A DNA stretch of 64,000 nt. It comes from Escherichia coli. Its GTDB lineage: Bacteria > Pseudomonadota > Gammaproteobacteria > Enterobacterales > Enterobacteriaceae. The notes beneath the pieces were generated by a model. That model made no database searches. It was not told the DNA's origin and saw nothing but the letters and a program-made list of their open reading frames with translations. The DNA is taken from NCBI RefSeq assembly GCF_041248615.1, contig NZ_CP158426.1. One strand, given 5' to 3'. How positions within the stretch are numbered: position 1 is the first letter of the stretch; the number at the start of each line of letters is the position of its first letter. Both the position numbers and the translations under genes were made by a program. Below, in pieces: positions 5,719 through 34,106 of the stretch.

Positions 5719-5727
5719 GCTCTTTCC

Positions 5728-8700
5728 TTATTCAAACAGGGCTTCAATATCGTTAATGAGTTCGCTGGCGGTGATGTCGTCGAGCACGGAGAACTGCGCT
5801 TCCTGAGTTGAATTACTCCCCCAGCCATAGCTTTCCGCTTTGCCTTCCCATAGCCACAGCTTGCTTAAGACCTGCTCAGCGCTAAGATCGGCTGGTGACA
5901 TACCCACCGCAAAACCTTCGTCGATTTCCATGATTAACGACCAGCGACCGAGAGGTTTGATCATCCATCCGATCCAGCCTCCATCCTGTGGTTCGCCCTT
6001 TATCCAGCCTTTATTTGCCAGCCCCATGACCCGGCCGCTCGGGCATTTTCTGCCTGCCCAGCGGGTCAGTTCGCTGGCGTTGCGCTCGGCTTCTGTCAGG
6101 GCGTAACTGTTACGTTCAAGCTGACGGAACGGTGGTAGCAGTTCGTAGTCGGCAAAAAGCTGACCAAAGGCGACAGCATCCGTCGGTGATATTTCCAGAA
6201 CGTGAGGAATGCCGATAGAGATATCGCCTTCCTGCAAGGTGAAAAGATCATCGTCAGCGGTGCTGTAGCTGTTATCTTCCGCCACCCTAAAGCACGCCTG
6301 TAGCTGGTTTTCGGCGCTATAAACGCCCCAAATCAGACGGCGGGTTAAGTGACGAACCAGCGGATGCTCAACCAGGAAGAGCTGAAAGTTTTCCGGCGAC
6401 CAGCGGCGGCGCAGGCACATGGCGGATTCCAGCCTTGCTACCTGCTGGGCGGCGACGGTACGCGCATCTTTTTTCAGCAATTTGTAGCGGTTAACAGCAT
6501 CGTTTGCCTGTGATTCATCATCGCTTTTATTGGGTTTAGGTAAGTCTTTCAGGCGGCTGCCGGAAACATCGCGCACAAACGGTTTTAAGGTTTCATCAAA
6601 GCTGACGGTGAACTGCCGTGGGCCAAAATCCAGCAGCAGCGAACCGTTATCATCCAGACCGAGATCCGGTGCTAACCGGTCTTCAAGCTCCGGCACCGTG
6701 AGTTCGCGGCTCTCGGCAATGTCGGCAATTTTCTCTTTCGCCCGCTCCTGTAAGGCTTTGAATTTCAGTTTCTGGGCGATGCCGTTAAGCTGCATCAGGG
6801 CGATATCGCTGCCGATAGCGGCGAGAATATCCAACCCAACGGTGGCACGTTTATGCTGAGATTCGCCAGGCCAGGCGCGGATTAATGGCGTCAGTTTGCG
6901 GGCGGTGTCATCGTTACCGAGAACGCCTAACGCAGTGAACGCCCAACTTTCTTTCGACGGCGCGCCAGCGGTCTGCCAGGCGGTAAACAGATCCCAGGCA
7001 AATTCAGCCAGTGAGTCGGCGGTACAGGCATCTTTCACCTGCAATAATCCCGGATACAGCGCCTCCTCCTGATGGAAGCGGAGCATTTCACCGAGGTGGA
7101 GGAGGGCGCTATCTGGCAGTGATTGGGCATTTGCTTTTAATACCGGGCGGGTCCAGATCGATGGCTGATAAAAGGCCGGAAGAGTGGGGATTTTTGTCGG
7201 GTGATTATCTAAGGGATCGAGCGCAAGCATAGCGTTCACCGCATCTGTTACTTCCGGCTGGTTATAACGCCGGGCGATTTCTTGCAGTAATGGCTGATGA
7301 TCGTTTTCGATAAGCATACGCAAGGCAGCGCGGGCGTTATCCTGGGCTTCACCGGCTTTGCCGAGCGCCGCAGGCAGTAGGCCGGTAATGGCGTGTTCCG
7401 GGTATTTCAGCAGCCAGGTGCGGGCGTCTTGTCGTAGGGTTTTGAGTTTGTTGAAGGCGCGGGCGATCAGTGGCGCTAATTCGATAGCCGCAAAATATTG
7501 TGCTACAGGCAGAGCTTCTTGTGGATAGCGTGAAAAGGAGTGAATAAAACCCTGTAACCCAGCGAGTTGCAGGTGCGTCATGACAAACTCGACACCGACG
7601 TGTGGCTCTTTACTGAGGACATTCCACGCCTGCGCTGTTTTTTCGATAGGCAGGGCGGCTAACATGTAAAGCTGCCATTCCCGTTGATAGGAGTGCCAGA
7701 AGGTTTTAAATTCGCTGATTAGCGCAGAATAATCTCCCCTCTGCCAGAGTTCTACAACAGCATCAGACGCTTTCATATACTGGCCATTATTCCAGCGATT
7801 GAAACCCAGACGTGTCAGGTAGTTCTGAATATCCTCTTTTTGGCCGATGTCTATTTGATGTGCGTGCCAGCGATGCCTTGCATGAATCTCTTTTTCTGCC
7901 GTCTCGGTCAATGTGCAGCATGACTCCAGCGGTAATGGCGTTAAATCCAATACCGGCATTACAGATTTTTTCTTTTTCGAAAGCCAGGGCGGTGAGACTA
8001 ATACGGCAGGCAGCATATCGGCGCTGGCATGGTTTGAGGGCTGTGTCAGTTGTTGCTGGCATGATTTCAGCACTGCAACTGCGGGTGTTGAGAGCCAGGG
8101 AGTGACCTGTTCTGCTAGTGCCGGTTGCGAGATAAGCATCGTCATCAGCATAATGCGCCAACTATTCTCTTCTTTTTGCGCAAGAAGTTCCGCCAGTGCA
8201 GCCAGTGCTGCGTGTGGGAACGCAGCGCAAGCCTTAGTCATTCGTTCATGGCAGCGTTTAGTTTTGCCAGACACACGTATAAGTAGCATTAATGCTTGTG
8301 GGTGATTGATCTCTTCGAGAATACTTCCACAAAGATCAGCATAAGCATAGGGGGCGAAGCGAGCGATTCCGGCAATCCCTTGCTCCTGCAAAACGGTGAC
8401 ATTCCAGATGCAACCATGGTAATAGTCATTAAAAAGGTCGTACGCGCAATAAGATTCCAGCGCTTTGAGTAAGAAAGATTCTTGAACAACAAGTTTCAGC
8501 CATTCAACAGTTTGGACATTTTTCTGCTTCAGTAACCGTCGTGCGACTTCTTCTGCAATCTCCGGGCGTTCCGGTAGCATTAGCGCTACCATCGGTTGTT
8601 GAACGGGAGGAATATCAGGTAAAGCTGTAATGAATTTATCTACACAGCGTTGCCACAAAGTTTCTTCTGCAAGAGCCAAATGCTTACGCAGTCGAACGTC

Positions 8701-19212: not shown

Positions 19213-20037
19213 TTATCGCATTATGCCCATGAAGCCATGTACGCCCATATACACACCAACTAAGCCAATCAACAGACTGGAAAAATAGGGGGCGCGTTTA
19301 GCGAGAGTGTTAAATCCGCTCCAGCGTTTTGCGACCTGCTGAACGCTGATTGCTGCGCCAACGCCTACGGTGACCAGCGTTAACGCCAGGCCAATGCTGA
19401 AACTGACGACCAGTGTTGCGCCCAGTGTCAGGGCTTTCAACTGAATGCAAATCAACAGCACGGTAATTGCTGCCGGGCAGGGGATAAGGCCACCGGTTAA
19501 GCCAAATAACAAAATTTGCCAGTTGGTGACCTCTCTACCATCAAAGCGTCGTTTAATGTCATTGGCATGGGCTCGTGCATGGGCATCCTGATACTCGCCA
19601 TGTTCGTGATGGTGATGATGTCCATGGTCGTGGTGATCTTCGTGATCGTGGTGATGATGCTCATGATCATGCTCGTGCATATTCTCCAGCCAGTTTCGTT
19701 CGCCGCGCCAGGTACGCCAGAACATCCAGAACGCGGTGCCAATAATGATCACTGCGGAAATCAACTGGAGCCACGGTTCTGCTGATTGAGCAGTAAAGCG
19801 CTTGCTGATCACCATCCCGCCAAAGGCAATCAACCAGACCACTGCGGTATGCGAAATGGTTGCTGCCAGTCCGAGCATCACCGCCTGTTTAATGGTGCCT
19901 TTGATGGCGATGATAAACGCCGCCATCATCGTTTTTGAGTGCCCTGGTTCCAGGCCATGAAGCGCACCAAGTAAGATGGCGCTGGGGATGAAGAACCAGG
20001 CGTTTCCTTGCTGAAGAAGAGTTGTAAATTCGGTCAT
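19213..20037 (-). CDS. rcnA: Ni/Co efflux membrane protein RcnA
   Basis: Polytopic membrane ORF with the long His/Asp/Glu-rich loop (HEHDHEHHHHDHEDHHDHGHHHHHEHGE). Confidence 0.95.
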   Translation of the reverse strand: MTEFTTLLQQGNAWFFIPSAILLGALHGLEPGHSKTMMAAFIIAIKGTIKQAVMLGLAATISHTAVVWLIAFGGMVISKRFTAQSAEPWLQLISAVIIIGTAFWMFWRTWRGERNWLENMHEHDHEHHHHDHEDHHDHGHHHHHEHGEYQDAHARAHANDIKRRFDGREVTNWQILLFGLTGGLIPCPAAITVLLICIQLKALTLGATLVVSFSIGLALTLVTVGVGAAISVQQVAKRWSGFNTLAKRAPYFSSLLIGLVGVYMGVHGFMGIMR

Positions 20038-20074
20038 GATAATAATTCTTAGTATTAATTCGGCAATCTGATTC

Positions 20075-20109
20075 TACTCCCCCCCAGTACCTGATACTAC
20101 CCCCCAGTA
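20075..20109. promoter_or_regulatory. Two RcnR operator sites (TACT-G/C-run-AGTA) in the rcnA-rcnR divergent region
   Basis: tactcccccccagta (20075-20089) and tactaccccccagta (20095-20109) seen in sequence; match the described RcnR operator architecture. Confidence 0.75.
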
Positions 20110-20157
20110 GATTAATAGTGCTATGATTTTTCATATTCTTATTAACCAGGTGTTGCC

Positions 20158-20430
20158 ATGTCTCATACCATCCGTGATAAACAGAAACTGAAAGCGCGTG
20201 CCAGTAAGATTCAGGGCCAGGTCGTGGCGCTCAAGAAAATGCTCGACGAGCCGCACGAATGCGCTGCAGTTTTACAACAGATTGCTGCTATCCGTGGCGC
20301 GGTAAACGGTCTGATGCGGGAAGTGATTAAAGGTCATCTGACGGAACACATCGTTCACCAGGGGGATGAGCTAAAACGTGAAGAAGATCTGGATGTCGTT
20401 CTGAAGGTGCTGGATTCTTATATCAAATAA
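20158..20430 (+). CDS. rcnR: Ni/Co-responsive repressor RcnR (CsoR/RcnR family)
   Basis: 90-aa [71 protein letters not shown]. Confidence 0.95.
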
Positions 20431-20519
20431 TTTATTAACGCTATTGTAAAACTGCCGTTTTTCCTCGTTTACAACGCGTGCGCTGGACATTACCATCCTC
20501 CTCTGCGATTTATCATCGC

Positions 20520-20599
20520 AACCAAACGACTCGGGGTGCCCTTCTGCGTGAAGGCTGAGAAATACCCGTATCACCTGATCTGGATAATGCCAGCGTAGG
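20520..20599 (+). repeat. Left 80-bp direct repeat (attL-like); copy of the thiM TPP-riboswitch aptamer sequence
   Basis: aaccaaacgactcggggtgcccttctgcgtgaaggctgagaaatacccgtatcacctgatctggataatgccagcgtagg is identical base for base to 33185-33264. Confidence 0.9.
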
Positions 20600-20654
20600 T
20601 TGCCAACATTCTGATTAGTATTCATGTGGTTACATTTCTTTTTGTCCGTGTGTA

Positions 20655-21986
20655 ATGCACCTAATGTACAAAAAGAGCGTAAACATGAGGTACAAAACTC
20701 TTCCATACACGTTTCAAAGAAACGGTAATTACTATCTACAGATTCGGCTTTCGAATGGTCGGATGTATAAAAAATCACTTCTCACTGACAGCTATCGTGA
20801 AGTCTCTGCTTTGATGATTGGTGTTGCTCCGTACATTCCTTTTGTTAAATCATTAGCCATCACAATCCCGATGTTTGATGCCTTTGTTTCAAACCTGATT
20901 ATGTCAAAACTTAGGGCTGTAAAAGTTCCGCTGCTATCACATCAGTCGGTAATTACCCCTGCTACATTCGAGGAACCAGCGACACAAGCCGAACCGCAAA
21001 ACATGCTAACTCTTTCTGATGCGTGGGCTATGTATAAAGCGGAAAAGGGTAAAACATGGACAAAGTCGATCTCAAGGGCGAATGAGCGTTACATGGAAGT
21101 CTTGATGGTTGTCTTGGGAGAGACAACTGACGTAGTTGCGATTTCTAAGCAGGACATCAAGCAGGTGATGGAAGTTGTTGAGAATTTGCCTAAGCGTGTT
21201 GTCCAACCGTATCGCTCAATGAACATCCAGCAACTGATTGAATGTGATGATGTATCACCGAATGAGTTAGTAGGAGTGGAAGCCATTCATAAGCATCTCA
21301 AAATCTACAAATCGCTTTTCAAGACTTTTCTAACAGAAAACAAAGATATTTTGATTAAATCCCCAACTGATGGGGTAGTAGCAGCACCATCTAAAGCAAG
21401 GTTTGGAGCATACAGTTCGGCGGAGATGAAGAAGTTTGTAGAGTGGGCACTTAAGCAGCCAGATGGCTGGCAGAAGTGGATAACATTGTTGTTGGCATAC
21501 ACAGGAGCCAGAAGGGGAGAAATTGCCAAACTGGAAAAATCACAAATAAAATATGATGAGGATAGCCATCGGTATTATTTCCTGATTGCAGAAGGAGGGC
21601 AGGGGAAAACCGAAAATGCTACCCGACAAGTAGTGATACACCCTAAGTTGATCGAATGGGGTTTCATGGAATACGTTGATCGCCAGTGGAAAGAACGGAT
21701 TTTTTCAGAAGTGGCTGGTACAAACATGACGAAGATCGGTAAAGAATTTGCTGATGTGCGTGACCAGCTTGACATTCCGTACTTAGACGATTTTGGACAG
21801 CGGAGGCTTTTGCATAGCATTCGTCATTCTGTTTGCTCTACTGCGATGGCTGGATGGGTAAAGAACATCTTGCATCTGCAACAAACAGTAGGCCATGAGA
21901 AAAGTGGAGGGATCACTAAACGCTACTTACATACGTTCCCACTATCATCAATTTGTTATGTTATTGATGGGATTAGTTGGGTCTGA
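20655..21986 (+). CDS. Tyrosine-type site-specific integrase (island integrase); start may be at MRYKTLPY (20685)
   Basis: C-terminal catalytic signature: AYTGARRGE (box I Arg), HSIRHSV (H-x-x-R), ITKRYLH (Tyr nucleophile). Sits directly next to the left repeat. Confidence 0.85.
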   Translation: MHLMYKKSVNMRYKTLPYTFQRNGNYYLQIRLSNGRMYKKSLLTDSYREVSALMIGVAPYIPFVKSLAITIPMFDAFVSNLIMSKLRAVKVPLLSHQSVITPATFEEPATQAEPQNMLTLSDAWAMYKAEKGKTWTKSISRANERYMEVLMVVLGETTDVVAISKQDIKQVMEVVENLPKRVVQPYRSMNIQQLIECDDVSPNELVGVEAIHKHLKIYKSLFKTFLTENKDILIKSPTDGVVAAPSKARFGAYSSAEMKKFVEWALKQPDGWQKWITLLLAYTGARRGEIAKLEKSQIKYDEDSHRYYFLIAEGGQGKTENATRQVVIHPKLIEWGFMEYVDRQWKERIFSEVAGTNMTKIGKEFADVRDQLDIPYLDDFGQRRLLHSIRHSVCSTAMAGWVKNILHLQQTVGHEKSGGITKRYLHTFPLSSICYVIDGISWV

Positions 21987-22203
21987 AACTGCTAAGAATG
22001 ATAGGAAAAGCTACTTAATGATCCTTAGTTTTGGATGAAATTGAAGATTACAAAGATCTTGAGCGAATAAGAGCGTTTTTTAATCAAAAAAGCCATAAAA
22101 ACTTTTCTTGACTGTATATTAACACAGTGCTTCTACTATGTAGAAGAAATCGACATGAAAAATTTGATATGGTAAATTTTATCCATGATAACAAAAAGGT
22201 ATT

Positions 22204-23106
22204 GTGGATATGTTACTACCAATACGAGTTCATAAACGATTTCTAACTTTATTTAAGACTTTGCAAATTGACGATTGCCCACCGCAATCAACTTTAAATA
22301 TTCATGTACTTAATATCGAAAGCAATGAATTTATATACTGTAAATTAGTTGAAGAATTACGTGACATAATAATTACTTATGTACATTCGAATAGAAGGCT
22401 TGAGGAGTTTAAGGAAAGTTATCCTTCGTATAGCCCTAAACCTTTTTTCGAAGCAATACAAAAATTTCGCAATTATACGTCAAACGAAGGTGAGTTAGGT
22501 GAACTGCTTTTATACGCTTTTCTTGAAACAGGACTAAATGCTCCGAAATTACTTTCCAAAATGCAATTGAAAACAGATTCTAATGATTACATTAAGGGTT
22601 CTGATGGTGTACATCTGTTAGAATTAGATGATGGTTATCAATTAATATTTGGAGAATCAAAGCTCTATGCCGATCTTTTAGAAGGTGCTCGAGAAGCGTT
22701 TGATTCTATTTTAGATTTTAAAAGTAATGGAATGGCATTTGAAAGAGGGCTGATAGATACACACGTTATAAATGAAATGGTTTCAGAAGAAGGTTATGAG
22801 AAAATAAAATCAATTCTTCTTCCTTCTTCTGGCGATGATGGGCCAGATCTTGATTTATCCTTTGGTATATTTCTTGGTTTTGAATTGAAAATAGATAGCT
22901 CACAGTTATCATTGAAAAACAAAGAGTTTAGAGATTGGGTTAATGAGTCCGTGAAACAACATGCTACTCGCGTGGTCAGTACGATACGAAGGAAAATTAT
23001 TAATCATAAATTATATGGTCACGAATTCCACATATATATAGTTCCTTTTACCGATATTGATGTTACACGAAAAAAATTAATTCATGAAATGCTAACAATT
23101 AAGTGA
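22204..23106 (+). CDS. PD-(D/E)xK nuclease-like protein, HamA (DUF1837)-like candidate; start GTG 22204 or ATG 22210
   Basis: Motifs in the order expected for the restriction-endonuclease fold: acidic helix EGELGELLLYAFLE, then SDGVHLLELDDG, then LIFGESKLY (E-x-K). AT-rich; stop overlaps the start of the next gene. Confidence 0.55.
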   Translation: MDMLLPIRVHKRFLTLFKTLQIDDCPPQSTLNIHVLNIESNEFIYCKLVEELRDIIITYVHSNRRLEEFKESYPSYSPKPFFEAIQKFRNYTSNEGELGELLLYAFLETGLNAPKLLSKMQLKTDSNDYIKGSDGVHLLELDDGYQLIFGESKLYADLLEGAREAFDSILDFKSNGMAFERGLIDTHVINEMVSEEGYEKIKSILLPSSGDDGPDLDLSFGIFLGFELKIDSSQLSLKNKEFRDWVNESVKQHATRVVSTIRRKIINHKLYGHEFHIYIVPFTDIDVTRKKLIHEMLTIK

Positions 23107-25691
23107 ACACTATGAATGAATTAAATTCAAGTAAAAACATTCATTTGGCAGCTCGTCTTGCAGATGATGCTTTTGAAAGTGCTTATTTTAAAGAAATCAA
23201 TAAGTTTATAAGTGGTTTATACAATTACAGTTTATTTAACTGCGATTCAGATGTTAGTCTCTCCGAGAGTGATAACAATAAAATAGCACACGCTTTGCGT
23301 TTTGCAGATATATTTTCACATTCTTCAAAAGAAAATCATAGATCATGTGCATTTGAAATTATAAGTAGAATAGCCTTATTAAAAAAACATGATCCTTATT
23401 TTAAATTTATAGGTACTGCTGTTATTAATCGGCTTGGGGTTTATGCAGCAGAAAAACTCATATCAAAAGGGGTAAAATTACCCTTAGATAGAGAAGTTGA
23501 TTCTATTATTAAAAAATCAGTTCAGAAAACAGATGAAGATGGAGTATATTTCACTGATAAACAACATGAGTTATACAAACTTTTAAAAAGTAGCAAAACA
23601 ATTAGTTTTGCTGGTCCCACTTCGATGGGAAAGTCATTTGTTATTAATGCATACATTAAGGAAATAACTCTTAAAAAAGAGCTTAAAAATATAGCTTTAA
23701 TTGTTCCTACACGGGCTTTAATAAGCCAAAATGCACTTAAGTTAAAAATTGATATTGCATTGTATAAGAATGAAAGCCCTTATAAAGTTGTTACGACATC
23801 CTACATTATTAATGGTGATGAAAGTAAAAATAAAGGCTATATTTTTATTCTCACCCCAGAAAGGCTGGTTAGTCTCATAAGCACTATTCCTGGACTAATG
23901 ATTGATTATGTTTTTGTAGATGAAGCTCAAAAGTTAACAACAAAAAATGATTCGAGGAGTCTTGTTACTTATTCAGCTATAGAGCAAACAATTAGTAAAA
24001 ATCCTGAGGCAAGATTATTCTTCTCTTCACCTAATTTATCTAATCCTGAAATATTTAATATTTTGTTTGATAGAAAAGACGCTTCGGTATATAGAAATAC
24101 AGAAGGTGCAACTACTCAGAATATGTATTTTATTGATCTTTTAAATAGCAGCTTTAGCTATGTTAATACCGAGAAAAGGACGCTTGAAAAAATAGATGAG
24201 ATCTCTAATACTTACACGAATACAAATGATGTTATCTATAAATTAAATAATGGTAAAAGTAAAATAATTTATTGTGGGGGGATAGAAAGCACGCTTGAGA
24301 GAACACGTAGCTTTATCAATTATCTCAAAATTAATAAGAAAAAAAGAAAGCATTTAAATTTAGAAATATCTTCTGAGATAAGAAACTTTGTTCATGATAA
24401 CTATGAACTTGCAGAAGCCATCAACTATGGTGTTGCTTTCCACTTTGGAAACTTGCCTCAATCGATTCGAGATTTAATTGAGCATCATTTCAAAATAGGA
24501 AATATTGACTATCTATTCTGTACATCAACCCTACTTGAGGGAGTCAATTTACCTGCAAGATCCGTATTTATTCTTACGCATAAAAAAGGCCCCAGTCCAT
24601 TAGAGTCGGTTGATTTTTGGAATCTGGCTGGGAGAGCTGGGCGATTATCTATGGAATTGTCAGGGGATATTTTTTGTATTAGGGATGATAATAAGCTTTG
24701 GAATAAAAAAGCTGTTGATAATATCCTTCTGTCTGACAAAAATAACATTTCATTAAAGCCAAGCTTCTATATTGAAGACGAAAAAAGATTGAACGATTTA
24801 CACCATATAATTACGACTGGTAAAACAGGGAATATTAAAAATGCTGAGTTCCTTAGAACTTTAGGAGATATGATAAGAATAGACACTCTGAGGGATTCTA
24901 AAGAACTTCCTCTTATTAGTTATTTCCAAAGCAGTGGAAAATCAGAAATTTTGTTAAGTGCAGAAAAAAGCACTGAAAATATTACCATGCCAATGAATAT
25001 CCTTTTGGCAAATAGTCATATTGCGATTGATTCGCAGTATCATGCTTTTAAAAAAATAAAAAGCCTTACAGTTAAGGAACTGAAATTATCATGGCAGCCT
25101 ACATACGAAGAAATTAAAGAAAAATTGAATTTGATATTCGATATTTACCAAGTTGAAAAGTTTGCAACAGGTAGAGAACGTCTTTATTTAAATTCAATTC
25201 CATATTATGCAGTATTACTGTTTCAATGGATTCGTGGAAATAGTCTACAGGAAATTATCTCGGGGGCAATTGCTTATAGAAAGAACAAAAGTATATATAT
25301 TAAAAATACACCTGTTCTTTTTGACAGCGAAAACCCAGCTCATTTAACTGCATTAGTTAATGAAACTATAAAAGACATTGAGTTGCGTGTAGGTTACCAG
25401 TTACAAAATTATTTTTCACATTACTGTCAGCTTCTGAATTATGTGTTACAAGGAAATCCAGGGGCAAACTGGTCTCAGTTCATTGAGTTTGGCTCTAATG
25501 AGCCAATAGTATGGCACCTACAAATGATGGGCTTTTCAAGGGATAGTGCAGTTTTTCTCAAGAAGAATTTTTCAAAACATCTTAAACTTGATAATGAAAT
25601 GAATAAACTCATCATAATGGATAAGGAACTGATCAAGCGTTCTTTCAAAAAAGATGGACTACATTACTTAGAAATCCAATCGTTATTATAA
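23103..25691 (+). CDS. Superfamily-2 helicase (DEAQ box), HamB-like candidate
   Basis: Walker A/motif I FAGPTSMGKSFV, motif II VFVDEAQKL, motif VI-like NLAGRAGRL; about 170-aa N-terminal extension before the helicase core; GTGA start/stop overlap with the upstream gene. Confidence 0.6.
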   Translation: MNTMNELNSSKNIHLAARLADDAFESAYFKEINKFISGLYNYSLFNCDSDVSLSESDNNKIAHALRFADIFSHSSKENHRSCAFEIISRIALLKKHDPYFKFIGTAVINRLGVYAAEKLISKGVKLPLDREVDSIIKKSVQKTDEDGVYFTDKQHELYKLLKSSKTISFAGPTSMGKSFVINAYIKEITLKKELKNIALIVPTRALISQNALKLKIDIALYKNESPYKVVTTSYIINGDESKNKGYIFILTPERLVSLISTIPGLMIDYVFVDEAQKLTTKNDSRSLVTYSAIEQTISKNPEARLFFSSPNLSNPEIFNILFDRKDASVYRNTEGATTQNMYFIDLLNSSFSYVNTEKRTLEKIDEISNTYTNTNDVIYKLNNGKSKIIYCGGIESTLERTRSFINYLKINKKKRKHLNLEISSEIRNFVHDNYELAEAINYGVAFHFGNLPQSIRDLIEHHFKIGNIDYLFCTSTLLEGVNLPARSVFILTHKKGPSPLESVDFWNLAGRAGRLSMELSGDIFCIRDDNKLWNKKAVDNILLSDKNNISLKPSFYIEDEKRLNDLHHIITTGKTGNIKNAEFLRTLGDMIRIDTLRDSKELPLISYFQSSGKSEILLSAEKSTENITMPMNILLANSHIAIDSQYHAFKKIKSLTVKELKLSWQPTYEEIKEKLNLIFDIYQVEKFATGRERLYLNSIPYYAVLLFQWIRGNSLQEIISGAIAYRKNKSIYIKNTPVLFDSENPAHLTALVNETIKDIELRVGYQLQNYFSHYCQLLNYVLQGNPGANWSQFIEFGSNEPIVWHLQMMGFSRDSAVFLKKNFSKHLKLDNEMNKLIIMDKELIKRSFKKDGLHYLEIQSLL

Positions 25692-25697
25692 AACTGC

Positions 25698-25728
25698 CGA
25701 ATCAGAGTCTTTTATTGATTCTGATTCG
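25698..25728 (+). terminator. Hairpin immediately after the helicase gene (weak terminator candidate)
   Basis: CGAATCAGA-(13 nt)-TCTGATTCG; no strong T-tract, so confidence is low. Confidence 0.3.
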
Positions 25729-25999
25729 CACTTATATAGTTAAATCAAAAGGAGCATTAAAATTTTTCAGTAGCGATTTAGTATGCTAAATCGCTGCATA
25801 ACGAATCTGCTTCTAAATCTTGATTAAGTGTTTCGAACTGCCTTGATTGTTTATTGCTACACTTTATAATTAATCGCAACACACAAAACAATACAATGTA
25901 GGCAGTTGCACAGAATTAATTACAGGCACATTATGGATATCGAGAGGATTCGAACAGTTTTAAACTGCAAGCCCTTTGACTTTATCCCCTCCTACTATA

Positions 26000-26575
26000 T
26001 CAGCGTTTGATGCCGCTAATACTGGCAAGCATTTCTTTCTTCACACGAAAAACTGTAGCCCTGCCGCAATCACATAACTTTGCTATCTCGTCTGGTGTAT
26101 TCTTCCCGGCCTGTAACATATCGATAATCTTGTTATGTAGCTCTTTGTTCTTTTGCTTGCCCTTGTACTTCTTAGCCTCTTTAGCAAGAGCAATCCCCTC
26201 ATTGCGACGAGATGCGATCATACCCCGCTCAAATTCTGCAGCGGCTCCCATCATGGTTAGGATAAGGCGTGATTGTGGGGAATTATCAAAACTCATAGAG
26301 TTTGCAAGGAATTGAACAGTGATTCCACGAGCCACGAGGTTATCAATCATTTCCAGCAAATCGCGGGTATTACGTGCAAGGCGATCAATCGAGTGAGTAA
26401 CGAGCGTGTCACCTTCGCGGAGGTGTGAAAGCAGGTTCAACAATTCAGGTCTTTCGCTGGTGGACTTACCTGATTCTTTCTCTGCCACAATTTTGTCACA
26501 AACAGGTTCCAGCACTGCCAACTGACGCTCAAGATTTTGATCCTTTGTTGAGACTCTCGCGTAACCAAAAATCAT
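26000..26575 (-). CDS. Serine recombinase (resolvase/invertase family)
   Basis: N-terminus MIFGYARVSTKDQNLERQ (catalytic Ser in YARVST context), C-terminal HTH-like tail; 191 aa. Confidence 0.85.
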   Translation of the reverse strand: MIFGYARVSTKDQNLERQLAVLEPVCDKIVAEKESGKSTSERPELLNLLSHLREGDTLVTHSIDRLARNTRDLLEMIDNLVARGITVQFLANSMSFDNSPQSRLILTMMGAAAEFERGMIASRRNEGIALAKEAKKYKGKQKNKELHNKIIDMLQAGKNTPDEIAKLCDCGRATVFRVKKEMLASISGIKR

Positions 26576-26600
26576 TTTCCTGCCCTCACTTACGTGAAAA

Positions 26601-26662
26601 GTATCATTTGAATTTACTTAATGATACAGTATCATTTAAATGCATTCAACATCTAAATGATA
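26601..26662. promoter_or_regulatory. Cluster of three dyad-symmetric elements upstream of the serine recombinase gene (res-like site)
   Basis: GTATCATT-11 nt-AATGATAC; TGATAC-A-GTATCA; ATCATTTAAATG...CATCTAAATGAT. Position immediately 5' of the resolvase start is typical of res sites. Confidence 0.45.
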
Positions 26663-27081
26663 CTAAACGAGACGAGAAAAGCGAGTATCGTTAGGGAGTA
26701 CCCAAAAGAGATTTTTGATCGTGCGTTTTTTAGTCAATGTAGGGTTAGTGAAAAGTTCAGTACCGAGATCTGAGTTCACGGCATTTTGTCGACGGGGTTG
26801 AACCTGATTAGGCGAACGAGATTTTAAATCAGGCGGAATAAAACAAGTTGTACTTTTATCTGAGTAAAAGATCCCTTTAACTTTTTAGTCAGAAATCGTG
26901 ATACTAGGGGTTTGGTTATTTTGTGTCCTTAAGGCCAGTACTTTTAGCGAGGACGAAAAAACGGCCTACATGAGAACGCTTACAGTAACTTAAGTATATT
27001 ATCCAAAAAGTCACTTAACTTAAATCAATTTGGATGCAAAATCGCCACACTTTGCAAGTGAACACATACCGGGCAACAAGC

Positions 27082-27109
27082 AAATAAAAAAGGCCACTTT
27101 CGCGACCTT
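27082..27109 (-). terminator. Rho-independent terminator after the 119-aa gene
   Basis: Minus-strand RNA: AAGGUCGC-GAAA-GUGGCCUU (GNRA tetraloop) followed by UUUUUAUUUG. Confidence 0.65.
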
Positions 27110-27125
27110 GTACCAGTACAAACAC

Positions 27126-27485
27126 TCATTCAGAACGATCAAGTACCATATATGCTGGCTGACACATGCTGCCCCGCTCCTGTAGCCAGTAGTAATCAAG
27201 ATCGGCAACACGCACGTCCAATCCAGAATCTACACGGTTGATCTGTAACCGTAGCCCTACAGTATCCTTGTACGATAAACCAGATTTAACATTGTATTTG
27301 TACTTAACACCGTTTTCCTGTTCAAACTGTTTAAGGAAAGGCGTCATTTGTTTCTGAATTTCTTTCAAACAAATAACCTCATTATCAATAGCAAAGGGGG
27401 GTTCTGTTTTTCCATCAGGTACAGCAGCCTGTAAATGAAAGGAAGTACTCAACAATAACAGCATTGCAACAGAAGTCTTTTTCAT
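27126..27485 (-). CDS. Small secreted/periplasmic protein of unknown function
   Basis: Sec-type signal peptide MKKTSVAMLLLLSTSFHLQA; 43 bp downstream of the membrane-protein gene, same strand. Confidence 0.6.
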   Translation of the reverse strand: MKKTSVAMLLLLSTSFHLQAAVPDGKTEPPFAIDNEVICLKEIQKQMTPFLKQFEQENGVKYKYNVKSGLSYKDTVGLRLQINRVDSGLDVRVADLDYYWLQERGSMCQPAYMVLDRSE

Positions 27486-27528
27486 TTTAATTCCTTATTA
27501 AAGAACAGTACATTATATTTCAATGGAC

Positions 27529-28569
27529 TTAATAACAATATTTTATATTTCCTTCGGGTTTTCTCATGCATTTAATTCCTTCAGGAATATAATCAGTTAC
27601 GGGAGCAGGTCTGGCATCAGGTCTTGAAAGACGATTGGATATAGAAGACAACAGACTGAAAACACACTCATTAAATGATTTTTGATATTTATTTTTTTCA
27701 TAAAAGTACTGCATGGTGATTTTATCTCTTTCGTATTGCAATTCTTTGCCAAGCTGAATCCTATCCATATCAATTCCATTTCTCATAGCATTAAATCTTT
27801 CGTTCAATAAATTAAATTGAGATTTATTCCATTCATTTAAAGGAAATAAAGAATTGTTAAGCCTTTGCCTACAATTAGATTGCTCGATAGCTGACATGTA
27901 TTCTTTCATACTAACGCCAATATCTAAGTATGTGAGTTGTCCAGCAGTTCTATCAACTGAGTTATTAGGGTAAGATTTAATTTCAGTAAGTATTGACTCT
28001 GTTAATACTGCATTTTCTTCTAAATCTTTGCTAATAGTTATTTGAGCTTGTTCTCTTTTATCCTTATCAAATATTGAAATGTATTTCTTTACTATATCCT
28101 GATTAGCTTTCTCGGCTGCTACTAACGCATCTTGAACCTTCTTTTCCGCCGCTTTAACTCGTTGTTCTTCTACAAATTTCGCGTAGTCATCAGTATTTGT
28201 AATGTGATTTTCACGAGCGATAGAAAACTCTTTACTATCTTTAAAACCAAGTTTTTGTGCTCTGGCTCCATCGCTTGAAGATCGGGCAGAACTTGCCACG
28301 AAAGCGAGCACAATGATCAGTACAGGAACCGTATAATTATTAACGAGTTTATAGGGTAAGAACTTCGCTTTAAGCGTACCATAACCCAAAACAGCCCAGC
28401 CTATCGCGGCAGTACTTGCCAGTAGCTGGCACAATCCAGCGACGGAAAGCATGATTACCGACCAGAAGCCTGTACCGACTGCGAAAAGATCACCAAATTT
28501 CTCCATTGACGCAAGGAATAAAAACACTCCCCAAATGCCATAAAATCCTATTTTCAAATATTTACTCAC
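27529..28569 (-). CDS. Inner-membrane protein (3-4 N-terminal TM helices) with coiled-coil-rich soluble C-terminal domain; function unknown
   Basis: Hydrophobic segments in the first ~100 aa; charged helical region (EEQRVKAAEKKVQDALVAAEKANQDIVKK); AT-rich codon usage. Confidence 0.6.
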   Translation of the reverse strand: MSKYLKIGFYGIWGVFLFLASMEKFGDLFAVGTGFWSVIMLSVAGLCQLLASTAAIGWAVLGYGTLKAKFLPYKLVNNYTVPVLIIVLAFVASSARSSSDGARAQKLGFKDSKEFSIARENHITNTDDYAKFVEEQRVKAAEKKVQDALVAAEKANQDIVKKYISIFDKDKREQAQITISKDLEENAVLTESILTEIKSYPNNSVDRTAGQLTYLDIGVSMKEYMSAIEQSNCRQRLNNSLFPLNEWNKSQFNLLNERFNAMRNGIDMDRIQLGKELQYERDKITMQYFYEKNKYQKSFNECVFSLLSSISNRLSRPDARPAPVTDYIPEGIKCMRKPEGNIKYCY

Positions 28570-28779
28570 CGCAATTATCCTTTAATAATTTTCCAAATCG
28601 ATGGTTCGTTCTATTTGTATTATCGACAATAATTCGTTTGCCTTTAGGTAGATCCCTTAAAAAGGAATCCCCCCAAAATTTATAGATTAGCAGTTGTACC
28701 ACTCTCACTGTTTTGTCACTCCCATTATCTTCTCTCAGGTCAAAAGTACGGACTTAAAGCCGTCCGTGTTCAGGTGCTC

Positions 28780-28900
28780 AAGAGTAGCACGCATATCAAT
28801 AAATGATCGATAAAAACGATCAATTAATGGCTTATTGATCGCTATAACCTATCAATGACTATTAATTCAATACAAATCAATAGGTAAAATCGATCAAGAG
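28780..28900. repeat. ATCAAT/GATC-rich iteron-like cluster in an ORF-poor region
   Basis: About six ATCAAT (or complement) motifs in both orientations and several GATC sites within ~120 bp; further GATC pair at 29096-29103. Confidence 0.4.
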
Positions 28901-29552
28901 GATTCGTCATCCATGAAAGGGGTTATGTATCTGATTTCAATACAGGGAGTATTAGCGATACCATCACGCAAACGCTCTTAAAGCGTAGCTACGGCGTTTT
29001 GTAGGGTTTTTGGTCATTCATGTGTGTCAGTAATGAACATCGCATTCAGGGGCTTCCTGTGCGTTTTGTCCGAAACACCATCATGAAGGGGGACAGATCG
29101 GATCGGGGTCGCTTCGCTCTGGTCAGTACTGGATAGTTCTTTTCCAGTAACTGAAACCGCAGATACCCCACTAAGTACACAAAGGAATTATTTGTAGAAT
29201 AAGTAATGAAATAACAGTCAGTTATGTACTTACTGACAGAACTAAAAACGCGATTAGGTTCGCTCTGTCAGTGACCGAAGGGAACGCAACAGTAGAATCT
29301 AATCCAGCGAACAGTACACGCAAGCGGGTGCTGTTTAATTGTTTTATCTATGTAAACAATGGGATAGCTATCAAGTACTCACTGCGTGAGCACTCTCACT
29401 AACTACCCGAAACAGTTCGCTTGCTTCGCCGCTCCTACTTTCAGGTAGTTAATTCGCTTTCGCTCGTTGTGATGTCCGAAATTTATTACCTATAGTATTA
29501 TAAGGTATTATTTTCCGGACATTTATGTATTTTTATGATGGTGTTCTGGACA

Positions 29553-31028
29553 TCATTTTTTGCTTTTTTGTACTTCCTTTTCGTATTTGTTCCACATAGC
29601 CTTTTGCTCTTCGGGACTGAGTGCTGTATTACCACTGGCAAGAAACACCTTGAACGCTTCTAACTCAAGCCCTGGGTTGCGGCTTTTCCAGCGGCGAAAA
29701 CGCTTAGCGTGATTATCATCAAGAGTGAAACGCTTTTGCTTATTCTTTGAACCTTGCGGCCTGCCTCTCGACCTCTGCTCATCATCAATACCGATATCTA
29801 TATACTCAATATTATCTGTAAGAGATCTGGCTTGCCATTCATCAAAAACATAAACAGTCTGTGTTTCAGTACTGTCAAAATCCCTTGAAATTCCTCGTAG
29901 TACGAACTGGTGTAAACTTTCGTACTCCCTCGCAACATGTATCGCCTCGCCGTCAATCTCAAAGAACAATTCGCACTGTTTAGCCTCTGTTTCAGAGGGA
30001 CGCATACAAGCGAGCCAGACGCACGTGAGCAAGTGTTGGTACTGGTTAAACCCTCTGGCATCCGGGCTTATCTCTGTGCCGTTTTTGAGGCTCTGAGAAT
30101 CGCTTTTGTTCTTCGTCCAGTAGAAATCCTGTCCCTCAAGTTTTTTATCAATAAATGAGTATATTTTTTGTACTTTATCAGGGTTATTAGTCTTCCATGT
30201 CTTCGATAGTTTTTGATTTTTTGAGAAGTAATAAACCTTTAATCTGTCTTTGAGAGCTGTTTTTCGTGTCAGTAATCCTCCAAGTTCAGTACTTTCAAAG
30301 AGTTCTTTATTGCCTTTATAGATCAATGAATTTTCGAAATTAGCTCCGAGAAAGGTGATTGATACGTCTTTGTACTTACTGAGATCTTTCCATGCGGTAA
30401 TATTAAGCTGTTCCTTTTTCGCATCGGTAAAGTACTCATTATTCATGATGAACATATCATTTTCGTTAATTGCTGGTAGCTGGTTCAAAATATTCTTCAG
30501 TACTTCCCCTTGTATTTCTGGTTTTCTTTCTGCCGCAATATACATATTTTTATCATCTAATGTCAGTACATTGTGTATTAATGAATTAAGAATTGTATTT
30601 TTTATATTAGTATCACCCTCATTAATATTCTGAAAAGAGTGAAAATTAGTAACGTCGTCAATATAAATATTACAGTCAGATAACAATTCAGGAGGAATTT
30701 TGAAAAACGTTTTATCTGTTATGAGTAATGTTTTATTACTTCCAGATGAAAGAAAGTTAATAACTGAATTAATAACACTTTCATCTTTTGGTACTGTATC
30801 TGTAATTATATACTCGCAATTATTGATTTGCTTTGCTGTCTGCTTAATAAGTTCTTGAGTGTTCTGTACTAAAATATATTTTTCAGTACTGTTATTGATT
30901 ATATTGCATATAGCAGTAGTTTTACCTGAACCACAAGGGGCGGAGACATACTTAAATTTATTATAAATAGGTGTGGGATTAATCATTTGTACACGCTCCA
31001 TATTGATTAATGTAGAAAGGTCAGCCAT
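29553..31028 (-). CDS. P-loop NTPase with basic C-terminal tail containing an AT-hook-like RGRP motif; function unknown
   Basis: N-terminal Walker A SAPCGSGKTT, Walker B-like NIYIDDV; C-terminus RSRGRPQGSKNKQKRF. Confidence 0.6.
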   Translation of the reverse strand: MADLSTLINMERVQMINPTPIYNKFKYVSAPCGSGKTTAICNIINNSTEKYILVQNTQELIKQTAKQINNCEYIITDTVPKDESVINSVINFLSSGSNKTLLITDKTFFKIPPELLSDCNIYIDDVTNFHSFQNINEGDTNIKNTILNSLIHNVLTLDDKNMYIAAERKPEIQGEVLKNILNQLPAINENDMFIMNNEYFTDAKKEQLNITAWKDLSKYKDVSITFLGANFENSLIYKGNKELFESTELGGLLTRKTALKDRLKVYYFSKNQKLSKTWKTNNPDKVQKIYSFIDKKLEGQDFYWTKNKSDSQSLKNGTEISPDARGFNQYQHLLTCVWLACMRPSETEAKQCELFFEIDGEAIHVAREYESLHQFVLRGISRDFDSTETQTVYVFDEWQARSLTDNIEYIDIGIDDEQRSRGRPQGSKNKQKRFTLDDNHAKRFRRWKSRNPGLELEAFKVFLASGNTALSPEEQKAMWNKYEKEVQKSKK

Positions 31029-31370
31029 TCCAGTGTCTGGCCTTTCGTTGTTTTAGTTATTAGTCTTTTTGAGTTGCGACAACTGCAAGAGAATGTTTAT
31101 AAACAAGTGAAATAAGCAGTTTTACCGCCTCAAAAGCTACAGTCAGTTTCGTAATTATTTTCGAAAGCATCGTAAATTTCACTTCGCTATCTTCTATGCA
31201 AAAATTAGCAGCCTGAGGTATTTAATGATTGAGATGTGGCCTGTTGATAAGAGGGTTTGTATTGCTTGTTCTGCTCTTTGTTAATTTGTGACTTATTCCT
31301 TTCACAATGATCGGCTATGTTTGATAACTCTGTTAGGAAATCACCTATGGCTACCATATTGGATTTGCCC

Positions 31371-32276
31371 CTATATTTCCAGACACCTGTTATCACTTAA
31401 CCCATTACTGGCCTGCTGCCGCAGATATTCCCGTGGCGAGCGATAACCCAGTGCACTATGCGGATGCCATTCGTTATAATGCTCGAACGCCTCTGCAAGG
31501 TTCTTTGCTGCCGTTAACCCGTCTGGTTTAGGCATGATACTGATGTAGTCACGCTTTATCGTTTTCACGAAGCTCTCTGCTATGCCGTTACTCTCCGGAC
31601 TCCGCACCGCCGTGTTCTTCGGTTCAAGCCCCAATATCCGGGCAAACTGCCGTGTTTCATTAGCCCGGTAGCATGAACCATTATCCGTCAGCCACTCTAC
31701 TGGAGACGCCGGAAGCTCGTTGCCGAAGCGGCGTTCCACCGCTCCCAGCATGACGTCCTGTACTGTTTCACTGTCGAAGCCGCCCGTAGTGACTGCCCAG
31801 TGCAGTGCCTCACGGTCACAGCAGTCCAGCGCGAACGTGACTCGCAGTTTTTCTCCGTTATCACAGCGGAACTCGAACCCGTCAGAGCACCATCGTTGAT
31901 TGCTTTCTTTCACGGCCACTTTGCCAGTATGTGCCCGTTTCGATGGCGGTACAGCGGTTTTTCGCTCAAGCAACAGCGCATTCTGGCGCATGATCCGGTA
32001 AACACGTTTGGCATTGATCGCAGGCGTACCATCAAGTTCGGCCTGTCTGCGAAGCAGCGCCCATACCCGACGATAACCATACGTGGGCAGCTCTCCGATA
32101 ACATGGTGTATACGGAGAAGCACATCCGTATCATCTGAGTGACGGCTGCGGCGACCATCTTTCCAGTCATCGGTTCGTCTGAGAATTACGTGCAACTGCG
32201 CACGCGACACCCGGAGACAACGGCTGACTAAGCTTACTCCCCATCCCCGGGCAATAAGGGCGCGTGCGCTATCCAC
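31371..32276 (-). CDS. insD: IS2 transposase OrfB (InsD), DDE domain
   Basis: 301-aa ORF recognised as IS2 InsD; overlaps insC in the -1 frame as expected for an orfAB frameshift fusion. Confidence 0.9.
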
Positions 32277-32599
32277 TTTTTTGCACGCCCGTATTCAACG
32301 GCTTCTTTAAGGAGTTCATTTTCCATCGTTTTTTTGCCGAGCAGGCGCTGGAGTTCTTTAATCTGCTTCATGGCAGCAGCAAGTTCAGAGGCAGGAACGA
32401 CCTGCTCTCCTGCGGCCACAGCAGTAAGACTTCCCTCCTGGTATTGCTTGCGCCAGAGAAATAACTGGCTGGCTGCCACACCGTGTTGCCGGGCAACAAG
32501 GGAGACCTTCATTCCCGGTTCAAAACTCTGCTGAACAATAGCGATCTTTTCCTGTGTAGTACGCCGTCTGCGTTTCTCCGGTCCTAAGACATCAATCAT
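32234..32599 (-). CDS. insC: IS2 OrfA (InsC), HTH protein
   Basis: [56 protein letters not shown]...; start taken at MIDVL (ORF track begins 45 nt upstream). Confidence 0.9.
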
Positions 32600-33184
32600 C
32601 TGCTCTCCAATGACTAGTCTAAAAACTAGTATTAAGACTATCACTTATTTAAGTGATATTGGTTGTCTGGAGATTCATGGGGCCAGTCTACATATAATCA
32701 TGTTCATCTTCTAATTCTTTAAATTTTAATAGAGAAATCTCTTCATAATATTCTTTCATTTTCATATAAATCACCTTTTATTTTTTTGTTGTTAACACAG
32801 GTTTTTTTCTGCACTACACATTATAGCACATAGAATTAATTCGTTTCATTTTCTGTCAATGAAATAGAGTAAAGATAAATGCTTTTATAAAGCACTTATC
32901 ACATCCGTTGCCTTGCTATATATAAAAAGTTCTCCAAACTATACTGGTGTATATTTTCCCCATCAGATACAGTTGTTTTTAAACATTACAATGTTGGATT
33001 CTTGGTTCCAAATAAATCGAGCAACTATTAGTGTTTCAAAATGAAGTTGGGAGCTATTCCTTAATTCGTATGAGGTACAAAATGGGGTACTCGGTGGGGT
33101 ACAGCGTGTATAAGTGACGTCACCACGGGTAAACTTGCATCGGCGAGCAACTTAACCTAAGCTGACAAAAATTAAGAGAAATGT

Positions 33185-33317
33185 AACCAAACGACTCGGG
33201 GTGCCCTTCTGCGTGAAGGCTGAGAAATACCCGTATCACCTGATCTGGATAATGCCAGCGTAGGGAAGTCACGGACCACCAGGTCATTGCTTCTTCACGT
33301 TATGGCAGGAGCAAACT
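33185..33317 (+). promoter_or_regulatory. thiM TPP riboswitch (thi-box aptamer plus expression platform); its first 80 bp are also the right direct repeat (attR-like) of the island
   Basis: Sequence ...cgactcggggtgcccttctgcgtgaaggctgagaaatacccgtatcacctgatctggataatgccagcgtagggaagtcacggaccaccaggtcattgcttcttcacgttatggcaggagcaaactATG matches the recalled E. coli thiM riboswitch. Confidence 0.9.
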
Positions 33318-34106
33318 ATGCAAGTCGACCTGCTGAGTTCCGCGCAATCTGCGCACGCGTTACACCTTTTTCACCAACATTCCCCTCTTGTGCACTGCAT
33401 GACCAACGATGTGGTGCAAACCTTTACTGCCAATACCTTGCTGGCGCTCGGTGCATCGCCAGCGATGGTTATCGAAACCGAAGAGGCCAGTCAGTTTGCG
33501 GCTATCGCCAGTGCGTTGCTGATTAACGTTGGCACGCTGACGCAGCCACGCGCACAGGCGATGCGTGCCGCCGTTGAACAGGCAAAACGCTCTCAAACAC
33601 CCTGGATGCTTGATCCAGTAGCGGTGGGTGCACTCGATTATCGCCGCCGTTTTTGTCTGGAACTTCTGTCTCATAAGCCAACCGCCATACGTGGTAATGC
33701 TTCGGAAATCATGGCATTAGCTGGCGTTGCTAATGGTGGACGGGGAGTGGATACCACTGACGCCGCAGCTAACGCGATACCCGCTGCACAAACACTGGCA
33801 CGGGAAACTGGCGCAATCGTCGTGGTCACTGGCGAGATGGATTATGTTACCGATGGACATCGTATCATTGGTATTCACGGTGGCGATCCGTTAATGACCA
33901 AAGTGGTAGGAACTGGCTGTGCATTATCGGCGGTTGTCGCTGCCTGTTGTGCGTTACCAGGCGATACGCTGGAAAATGTCGCATCTGCCTGTCACTGGAT
34001 GAAACAAGCCGGAGAACGCGCAGTCGCCAGTAGCGAGGGGCCAGGCAGTTTTGTTCCACATTTCCTTGATGCGCTCTGGCAATTGACGCCGGAGGTGCAG
34101 GCATGA
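33318..34106 (+). CDS. thiM: Hydroxyethylthiazole kinase
   Basis: 262-aa [36 protein letters not shown]...; 4-bp overlap with thiD. Confidence 0.95.

Follow-up and report, generated by a model that had tools for sequence, protein, structure and literature searches.

The 64,000-bp stretch of Escherichia coli DNA analyzed here (contig NZ_CP158426.1; hereafter, the window) encodes a predicted resolvase-type serine recombinase preceded by a three-subsite, promoter-bearing recombination site (res) on the Tn3/gamma-delta plan. The system itself is ordinary and textbook-style; its home is unusual, as it forms the core module of small integrative defense islands, with cargo slots flanking it. Judged by its sequence and by its relatives, its most probable role, which we put forward with moderate confidence, would be to resolve dimers of the island, tandem copies, or cointegrates while repressing its own expression.

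The recombinase is composed of an N-terminal catalytic domain and a C-terminal helix-turn-helix (HTH). Pfam assigns residues 2–136 of its 191 amino acids (aa) to Resolvase (PF00239; E 3.5e-36) and residues 146–180 to HTH_7 (PF02796; E 5e-4), and the RefSeq entry is a recombinase family protein (WP_001578624.1). The closest PDB matches found with phmmer are gamma-delta/Tn3 resolvase, Sin, and Gin, which score about equally (E ~1e-23). In an alignment to gamma-delta resolvase, the catalytic motifs Y-A-R-V-S-T and D-R-L-x-R are kept. By these features, the open reading frame (ORF) is a bona fide small serine recombinase of the resolvase/invertase superfamily. It matches PHROG 125, which is labeled DNA invertase, and every match to an NCBIfam subfamily falls far under its cut-off.

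Upstream of the gene, the exact 8-mer GTATCATT occurs at 26601 (+), 26620 (−), 26629 (+), and 26656 (−), giving four perfect half-sites within 63 bp. The whole window holds eight copies, compared with 2.3 expected on both strands, and none of 100 shuffled sequences reached this number. The half-sites run forward, reverse, forward, reverse, and therefore form two true dyads, sites III and II (Table 1). A repeat search of the window returns the dyads 26601–26608/26620–26627, 26620–26627/26629–26636, and 26628–26642/26650–26664, the middle of which exists only because the two true dyads abut with a 1-bp gap. The imperfect dyad farther from the gene, which reads AAATCTCTTTTGGGTA/CTCCCTAACGATAC on the strand of the recombinase gene, is probably the crossover site (site I), as its conservation suggests. 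Its central TA (26699/26700) is invariant among relatives. From the far side, the order is site I, a gap of 21–23 bp, site II, a gap of 1 bp, site III, and the gene, and the whole array measures 112–114 bp (26601–26714). Both the pattern (spans of 28–30, 35, and 27 bp; gaps of 21 and 1 bp) and its conservation are those of a three-dyad res of the Tn3/gamma-delta type.

Table 1 Coordinates of the recombinase module and of other island features in the window
Feature	Position	Strand	Evidence
Small serine recombinase, resolvase-type, 191 aa	26000–26575	−	ORF, Pfam, PDB phmmer, RefSeq
Sigma-70-like promoter of the recombinase gene	26621–26649	−	consensus scan, pattern match
res site III, 27-bp dyad GTATCATT-N11-AATGATAC, adjoining the gene	26601–26627		perfect arms, conservation
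res site II, 35-bp dyad GTATCATTTA-N15-TAAATGATAC, 1 bp from site III	26629–26663		arm conservation
Putative res site I (crossover), imperfect 28–30-bp dyad	26685–26714		conservation; + strand GTATCGTTAGGGAGTA/CCCAAAAGAGATTT
Hairpin 1, 12-bp stem with one mismatch, directly past the hamB stop	25698–25728		fold z about −5
Hairpin 2, perfect 10-bp stem, 4-nt loop	25772–25795		fold z −3.3 to −4.3
Hachiman cargo: hamA 22204–23106, hamB 23103–25691	22204–25691	+	PADLOC HamA1 2.4e-120, HamB1 8.3e-296
Left attachment copy, duplicated thiamine pyrophosphate (TPP) riboswitch aptamer	20522–20617	+	Rfam RF00059, 58 bits
Right attachment copy, TPP riboswitch before thiM	33187–33283	+	Rfam RF00059, 71 bits
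Tyrosine integrase of the island	20655–21986	+	PHROG 1 integrase, RefSeq
Conserved backbone	27126–31028	−	119-aa gene 27126–27485, 346-aa gene 27529–28569, ~980 bp non-coding, 491-aa P-loop/helicase-like gene 29553–31028

The array is conserved well beyond the window. A one-genome-per-species scan yielded 14 close relatives (74–96% aa identity) in Enterobacterales and Aeromonas, and plasmid homologs with 57%, 49.5%, and 43.5% protein identity were compared as well. The geometry of site I (28–30 bp), 21–23 bp, site II (35–36 bp), 1 bp, and site III (27 bp) is kept in about 20 loci spanning 100% to 43.5% protein identity, including loci on two plasmids of 3.7 and 12 kb and on an IncI1 plasmid. 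Across islands with flanks of ~85% identity, the half-sites are invariant and the spacers within the dyads drift. The arms of site II are 100% conserved, and its span of 35 bp (36 in one locus) and 1-bp gap to site III recur in every relative compared. The 27-bp span of site III is invariant in 17 of 20 relatives, including the plasmid homologs at 43–57% identity. Every relative retains site I, including those with unrelated flanks, always 21–23 bp from site II. In the loci L075 and L015 (homologous loci are denoted by L numbers), it forms a clean dyad of 28 bp with GTATC/GATAC at its ends; it reads ATATCATTTAGCTA/CTCCCTACTGATAC in L015, from Serratia, and GTATCCATTGAGTA/CACTCCAAAGATAC, a clean 28-bp dyad as well, in the IncI1 plasmid homolog. 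In the most divergent E. coli islands, blastn homology ends at 26601 and 26711, that is, at the edges of res.

A predicted promoter for the recombinase gene lies within sites II and III. The −35 hexamer TTGAAT (26649–26644) is held by the spacer of site II and, after a 17-bp spacer, the −10 hexamer TATCAT (26626–26621) is held by the gene-distal half-site of site III. The TTG at the center of site II and the TATC(A/T)T within the half-site of site III recur in all homologs, for example as TTGACA-18-TATCTT in L075 and TTGCTT-17-TATCAT in L074. This conserved placement supports autoregulation by occlusion, and we infer that the recombinase would repress its own gene in this way. On the + strand, a mirror-image promoter-like match (26608–26635; TTGAAT at 26608, 16-bp spacer, TATCAT ending at 26635) faces site I and the upstream cargo slot; it arises because the dyads are symmetric. 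Its −35 hexamer is kept in L005, L006, and L009, whose cargo runs that way, and is not conserved overall, several relatives having TTAAAT or TTTAAT.

An initial annotation of this DNA had proposed a 191-aa resolvase/invertase-family gene, convergent with a helicase operon and preceded by a res-like multi-site region in an arrangement expected for autoregulation. The ORF, Pfam, and PDB relatives agree with the family assignment, the convergent operon turns out to be the two-gene Hachiman system hamA/hamB, and comparison with the relatives makes a convincing case for a three-subsite res as well as for the promoter overlap. Its suggestion that island multimers or cointegrates are resolved also agrees with the role preferred here. 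The triple dyad that it had placed at 26601–26662 needs revision: the dyads are detectable, only two dimer sites lie in that interval, and the third lies at 26685–26714.

The res of Tn3 and gamma-delta is 114 bp long and contains three dimer-binding sites (PMC9943657). In Tn3, strands are exchanged in site I, site III is the one closest to tnpR, and TnpR, originally defined as a repressor, represses the promoters within res (PMC7157771). The system in the window follows the same plan. It pairs a small serine recombinase (~185–190 aa, C-terminal HTH) with a res of ~112–114 bp whose three dyads are of unequal span, the crossover site being farthest from the gene and site III adjoining it; the predicted promoter lies inside the accessory sites, and in each half-site, an outer HTH motif gives way to an inner part rich in A/T. 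In gamma-delta, the three sites span 28, 34, and 25 bp and are separated by 22 and 5 bp, and the distance between the centers of sites I and II is 53 bp, compared with 52.5–53.5 bp here. The systems differ in that protein identity is only ~33–35%, the half-site motif is GTATCATTT instead of TGTCYNNTA, and the recombinase of the window is accompanied by neither a transposase nor terminal inverted repeats, lying on an integrase-bearing island and not on a replicative transposon.

The stand-alone resolvases of the plasmids pRHB38-C24_9, pKP34_unnamed6, and pCL011-1 belong to the same clade (43–57% identity) and share an identical I–II–III geometry (28/35/27 bp) and promoter placement. They reside on autonomous plasmids, the dimers of which are an obvious substrate, whereas the recombinase of the window resides on a chromosomal, single-copy, integrative island. 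We found no experimental characterization of these plasmid homologs in the literature. Sin, beta, Hin, and Gin belong to the same superfamily and give similar E-values. The res of Sin contains two dimer sites and an HU/IHF site (PMC9943657), a two-dimer-site layout that is not found here. Hin and Gin use two simple 26-bp inverted sites and a Fis enhancer, and such a paired inverted-site layout is not found here either. The core of the hix half-site is of the TGATA type, like that of the half-site in the window.

The resolvase module belongs to the core of a family of 9–13-kb integrative islands in Enterobacterales and Aeromonas. In the window, the island occupies ~11 kb between rcnR and thiM of the E. 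coli chromosome, with a G+C content of 31–41% compared with ~50%. It has the properties of a defense-carrying integrative island: patchy presence between core genes, an integrase, a duplicated attachment sequence, and Hachiman. The module or island is carried by 40 of 5,426 complete E. coli genomes, and strain KE55 (NZ_CP141061) and three further genomes match this region at 100% identity. The backbone genes recur at 98–100% identity in islands at thiM (with a tyrosine integrase) and at ppdD and yggR/yggS (with large serine recombinases); the ybhA island carries the backbone in a more diverged form. In Hochhauser et al. 2023, yggS–yggR is hotspot 6, the rcnR–thiM islands are listed without a recognized mobile-element type, and integrase-only islands are discussed as having an unclear mobilization mechanism.

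The cargo of these islands is diverse and comprises Hachiman; a ThsB-like TIR protein with NACHT (PDC-S60); an NsnB/AriA-like ATPase pair; Lamassu LmuA/C/B; SLATT; PDC-S52; a KAP NTPase with SMODS/SLATT; a PARIS-like system; and several genes without a PADLOC match. It is found past hairpin 2, downstream of the recombinase, in the window, L002, and L004; directly outside site I in L006/L007, L012, L013, and L015–L019; ~185 bp beyond site I in L005; and inside the 3′ end of the recombinase gene, which it replaces, in L003. Integron-like capture at a fixed point was rejected, the cargo junctions lying at no fewer than four different positions. The cargo-slot genes without a PADLOC match are those in L003 (9477–11857), L008 (6001–7206), L009 (3110–7529), L015 (6134–7815), L018 (6171–7492), and L019 (5542–7809). 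They are candidate undescribed anti-phage systems because known defense systems fill the same slots elsewhere. Compared with the E. coli islands, the res–recombinase module is reversed relative to the backbone in L012, L015, L017, L018, and L019 (Aeromonas, Serratia, Rahnella, Edaphovirga, and Providencia relatives; recombinase at ~8001, or 2550 in L017), and only 100 bp separate the recombinase of L017 from the 119-aa gene convergent with it.

A resolvase of this type would work as follows. Dimers bound to sites II and III would cover the −35 and −10 hexamers of their own promoter and thereby cause self-repression. On a single supercoiled molecule carrying two directly repeated copies of res, the accessory sites would intertwine, and the dimers bound to site I would cut and exchange strands at the central dinucleotide, so that the DNA between the copies is deleted. 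Two copies could come from a dimer of the excised island, from tandem integrated islands, or from a cointegrate with a related element. In the single-copy integrated state, there would be no partner site, and the protein would act only as its own repressor. The copy number fits this picture. In the window, a search for half-sites (up to 2 mismatches) and for dyads (3–25-bp spacers, up to 3 mismatches) returned the two known dyads only and no second res site. Distant-mode blastn of res against the 5,426 E. coli genomes detected res in 31, each with exactly one copy, all chromosomal and none on a plasmid. This pattern is consistent with a resolvase that stays inactive until a second copy of its site appears.

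The same searches bear on the proposal of the initial annotation that the recombinase inverts or deletes a neighboring segment and makes the cargo phase-variable. The second matching site that this would call for is missing from the window and from the 31 single-copy genomes, and eight genomes with the same island align over the region as one collinear piece at 99.7% identity or more, with no orientation variants. Because there is no partner site, a single copy per genome, and collinearity among islands, an inversion or deletion switch is argued against. The arrangement of a DNA invertase, two inverted sites flanking a segment in the replicon, is not seen here, and three subsites with accessory sites are the pattern of a resolvase, unlike paired 26-bp sites. 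In favor of such a switch are the PHROG 125 label, the near-equal closeness of Gin and gamma-delta resolvase, the resemblance of the TGATA core to the hix half-site of Hin, and the opposite orientation of the module in L012, L015, and L017–L019; the orientation difference, however, lies between genera and not inside one population. An invertase or deletase is thus hardly credible. Cargo flipping was also considered for an AAA-ATPase found on opposite sides of the recombinase in L004 and L005 and was rejected: the copies are only ~76% identical and are therefore independent acquisitions, not an inverted segment. It is likewise improbable, though less so, that the dyads are only an operator and that the protein now represses itself, and perhaps divergent cargo, with recombination no longer its function. 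The promoter lies inside sites II and III in all homologs, there is one site per genome, the mirror-image match faces the upstream cargo slot, yggR-type islands have their cargo transcribed divergently from res, and TnpR was first known as a repressor (PMC7157771). Against this, the catalytic Ser and Arg motifs are retained, and the 28-bp geometry and central TA of site I persist down to 43% identity, although this site contributes no element to the promoter of the gene. In addition, small plasmids, on which one would expect multimer resolution, carry the same architecture, and the + strand −35 hexamer is not conserved.

A broader possibility, held at low confidence, is that the module serves chiefly to drive the exchange of modules. 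If two related islands, in tandem or joined in a cointegrate, recombined at site I, the integrase–cargo–recombinase arm would be swapped against the backbone arm; such exchange would extend rather than exclude resolution, and would explain why small serine recombinases travel with defense genes, a linkage reported in general terms in a recent preprint (PMC12632615). One backbone is found with three or four different integrases and integration sites. The two recombinase/res alleles of the window and L002, on a shared backbone, differ at 115 positions in 25800–26684 (13%), and by 12 single-nucleotide polymorphisms and one indel in 26685–31000 (~0.3%), the last dense difference (26684) marking the outer edge of site I; such a divergence step is the trace that res-mediated exchange would leave. 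L002 (thiM, tyrosine integrase, TIR and NACHT cargo) and L078 (ppdD, large serine recombinase, other cargo) show no differences across the recombinase gene and res (26030–26714). Cargo starting directly outside site I, as in L006, L012, L013, and L015–L019, points the same way. However, the cargo junctions do not fall at one point but outside site I, ~185 bp beyond it, after hairpin 2, or inside the recombinase gene; at least one of them is within coding sequence (L003, 26513–26537), and the conserved half-sites are natural hot spots of homologous recombination. Moreover, only one site I junction event is resolvable, and Tn3-type resolvases disfavor intermolecular reactions. A clean site I crossover between L005 and L006 was rejected, as 8 further differences lie inside res.

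Resolution, the role that we prefer, has to be weighed against several observations. The site I of the window is a weak dyad, the gene-distal half of which matches the half-site consensus poorly, and its exact center could lie at more than one place within GGGTAC. The spans of sites II and III are 35 and 27 bp, with 1 bp between them, compared with 34 and 25 bp and a 5-bp gap in gamma-delta; with these odd spans, the geometry of the synapse may differ from that of gamma-delta. In addition, the residues of the gamma-delta 2-3′ interface (R2, K54, and E56) are not conserved in the recombinase as aligned to its PDB relatives. Site III is absent from three relatives (L008, L020, and L021), one of them with an intact gene. 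Homologous recombination could explain the mosaics, because the divergence step at site I effectively records a single ancestral event and another junction lies inside coding sequence. Tandem islands were found in none of the 5,426 E. coli genomes, and the natural two-copy substrate is a conjecture, the 491-aa helicase-like protein of the backbone having no plasmid relatives.

In each of L008, L020, and L021 (recombinase at 8001), the loss of site III is a precise deletion of a 28-bp unit between direct repeats of AAATGATACT. The recombinase gene of L008 looks intact. In the two Mangrovibacter loci, the recombinase match is broken, L021 giving two tblastn segments and L020 the C-terminal part only; loss of site III together with a broken gene suggests decay.

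Both hairpins downstream of the recombinase fold at −12 to −18 kcal/mol (z −3.2 to −5.4), and none of 200 shuffled sequences is as stable. The initial annotation had described them with 9-bp stems; they exist and are stable, and their stems are 12 bp (with one mismatch) and 10 bp long. Hairpin 1 is absent from islands with other cargo and is part of the Hachiman cassette, probably as the hamB terminator. Hairpin 2, which is followed by no canonical T-run, is probably a terminator too. In an alignment, the window, L002, and L004 are homologous through hairpin 2 and unrelated just beyond it. Therefore, hairpin 2 is the conserved distal end of the recombinase module, and the cargo slot starts there. 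Neither hairpin is a recombination site.

The annotated genes of the island encode the integrase, HamA and HamB, the recombinase, two hypothetical proteins, the helicase-like protein, and a small hypothetical protein. The attachment sequence is an 82-bp core identical in both TPP aptamer copies, which are the only structured RNAs found by Rfam in 20000–33500 at gathering thresholds. The island, bounded by these copies, has integrated into the aptamer preceding thiM, which retains the right copy. The left copy keeps the chromosomal upstream side, and the integrase gene (start 20655) lies directly downstream of it. The 119-aa and 346-aa backbone proteins have no family match in Pfam, PADLOC, NCBIfam, or PHROGs. 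The 491-aa protein matches the Pfam ResIII/DEAD P-loop over its N-terminus only, as well as PHROG 2467; a search for its relatives found none among plasmids and, among phages, only a jumbo Agrobacterium phage (23% identity). A "Rep" label suggested by a weak CyRepA1 match was dropped because the protein matched only this one phage and no plasmid. A phage satellite was also rejected, as the res pattern has no IMG/VR match and the 491-aa protein has no closer phage relative, and so was a Tn3-family transposon, which would bear a DDE transposase TnpA and 38-bp terminal inverted repeats, as the island has no transposase save for a secondary IS2. This IS2 copy lies near the right end (~31100–32700; ORFs 31371–32276 and 32234–32644 on the − strand; NCBIfam TnpB 700 bits, TnpA 273 bits), and the island is ~1336 bp longer here than the otherwise identical one in KE55.

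Two non-coding regions accompany the backbone. The ~980 bp between the 346-aa and 491-aa genes (28570–29552), a gap of the same size in L002, L003, L005–L007, L078, and L079, contain a GATC-rich imperfect inverted repeat (28804–28824/28834–28854) and other repeats, and may be an origin or regulatory region. The ~375 bp between site I and the terminator of the 119-aa gene at 27109–27090 (26715–27090) are 76–100% conserved in L002–L005 and recognizable in L008–L011 and L020–L021; they match no Rfam family, lack ORFs of at least 50 aa, and contain an inverted repeat, CCTGATT...AATCAGG, at ~26803–26832. In L004 (strain TB06052), the interval from rcnR to the left riboswitch copy contains three extra small genes (5210–7171), for an outer membrane protein, a hypothetical protein, and an HTH-like protein, which may be left over from an element that used this attachment site earlier.

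In its introduction, pipeline results, and discussion, the RADS preprint (Andersen et al. 2025, PMC12632615) presents small serine recombinases as marks of defense loci, leaves their function open, and describes no recombination site; the bait presented there comes from Enterococcus, where it is co-transcribed with a type IV restriction enzyme. In the islands, too, a small serine recombinase adjoins anti-phage systems; the recombinase of the window differs in being convergent with its cargo and not co-transcribed with it. Two further neighborhoods, those of more distant or differently placed homologs, echo the reported link between serine recombinases and defense. In L080 (6852–8979; E. coli, ybhA site), a homolog lies directly beside a KAP P-loop NTPase, a class validated as defense in that preprint, and in L076 (3001–5417; Providencia IncC plasmid), another lies directly beside an AIPR abortive-infection protein.

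The recombinase is thus a core gene of a little-described island family, which in E. coli occupies thiM, ppdD, yggR/yggS, and ybhA. With res defined to the base pair, including three subsites and the embedded promoter, the question of its function is directly testable, and the unannotated genes of the cargo slots are candidate new defense systems. A more speculative possibility, which we rate well below simple resolution, is that the module acts as a reshuffling device: islands in tandem or in cointegrates would collapse at site I, integrase-plus-cargo arms would be re-paired with backbones across different integration sites, and the cargo adjacent to res would fall under the resolvase-repressed res promoters, so that defense expression would burst on entry into a new host. 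If true, such reshuffling would supply a mechanism for the reported, unexplained linkage of small serine recombinases with anti-phage systems.

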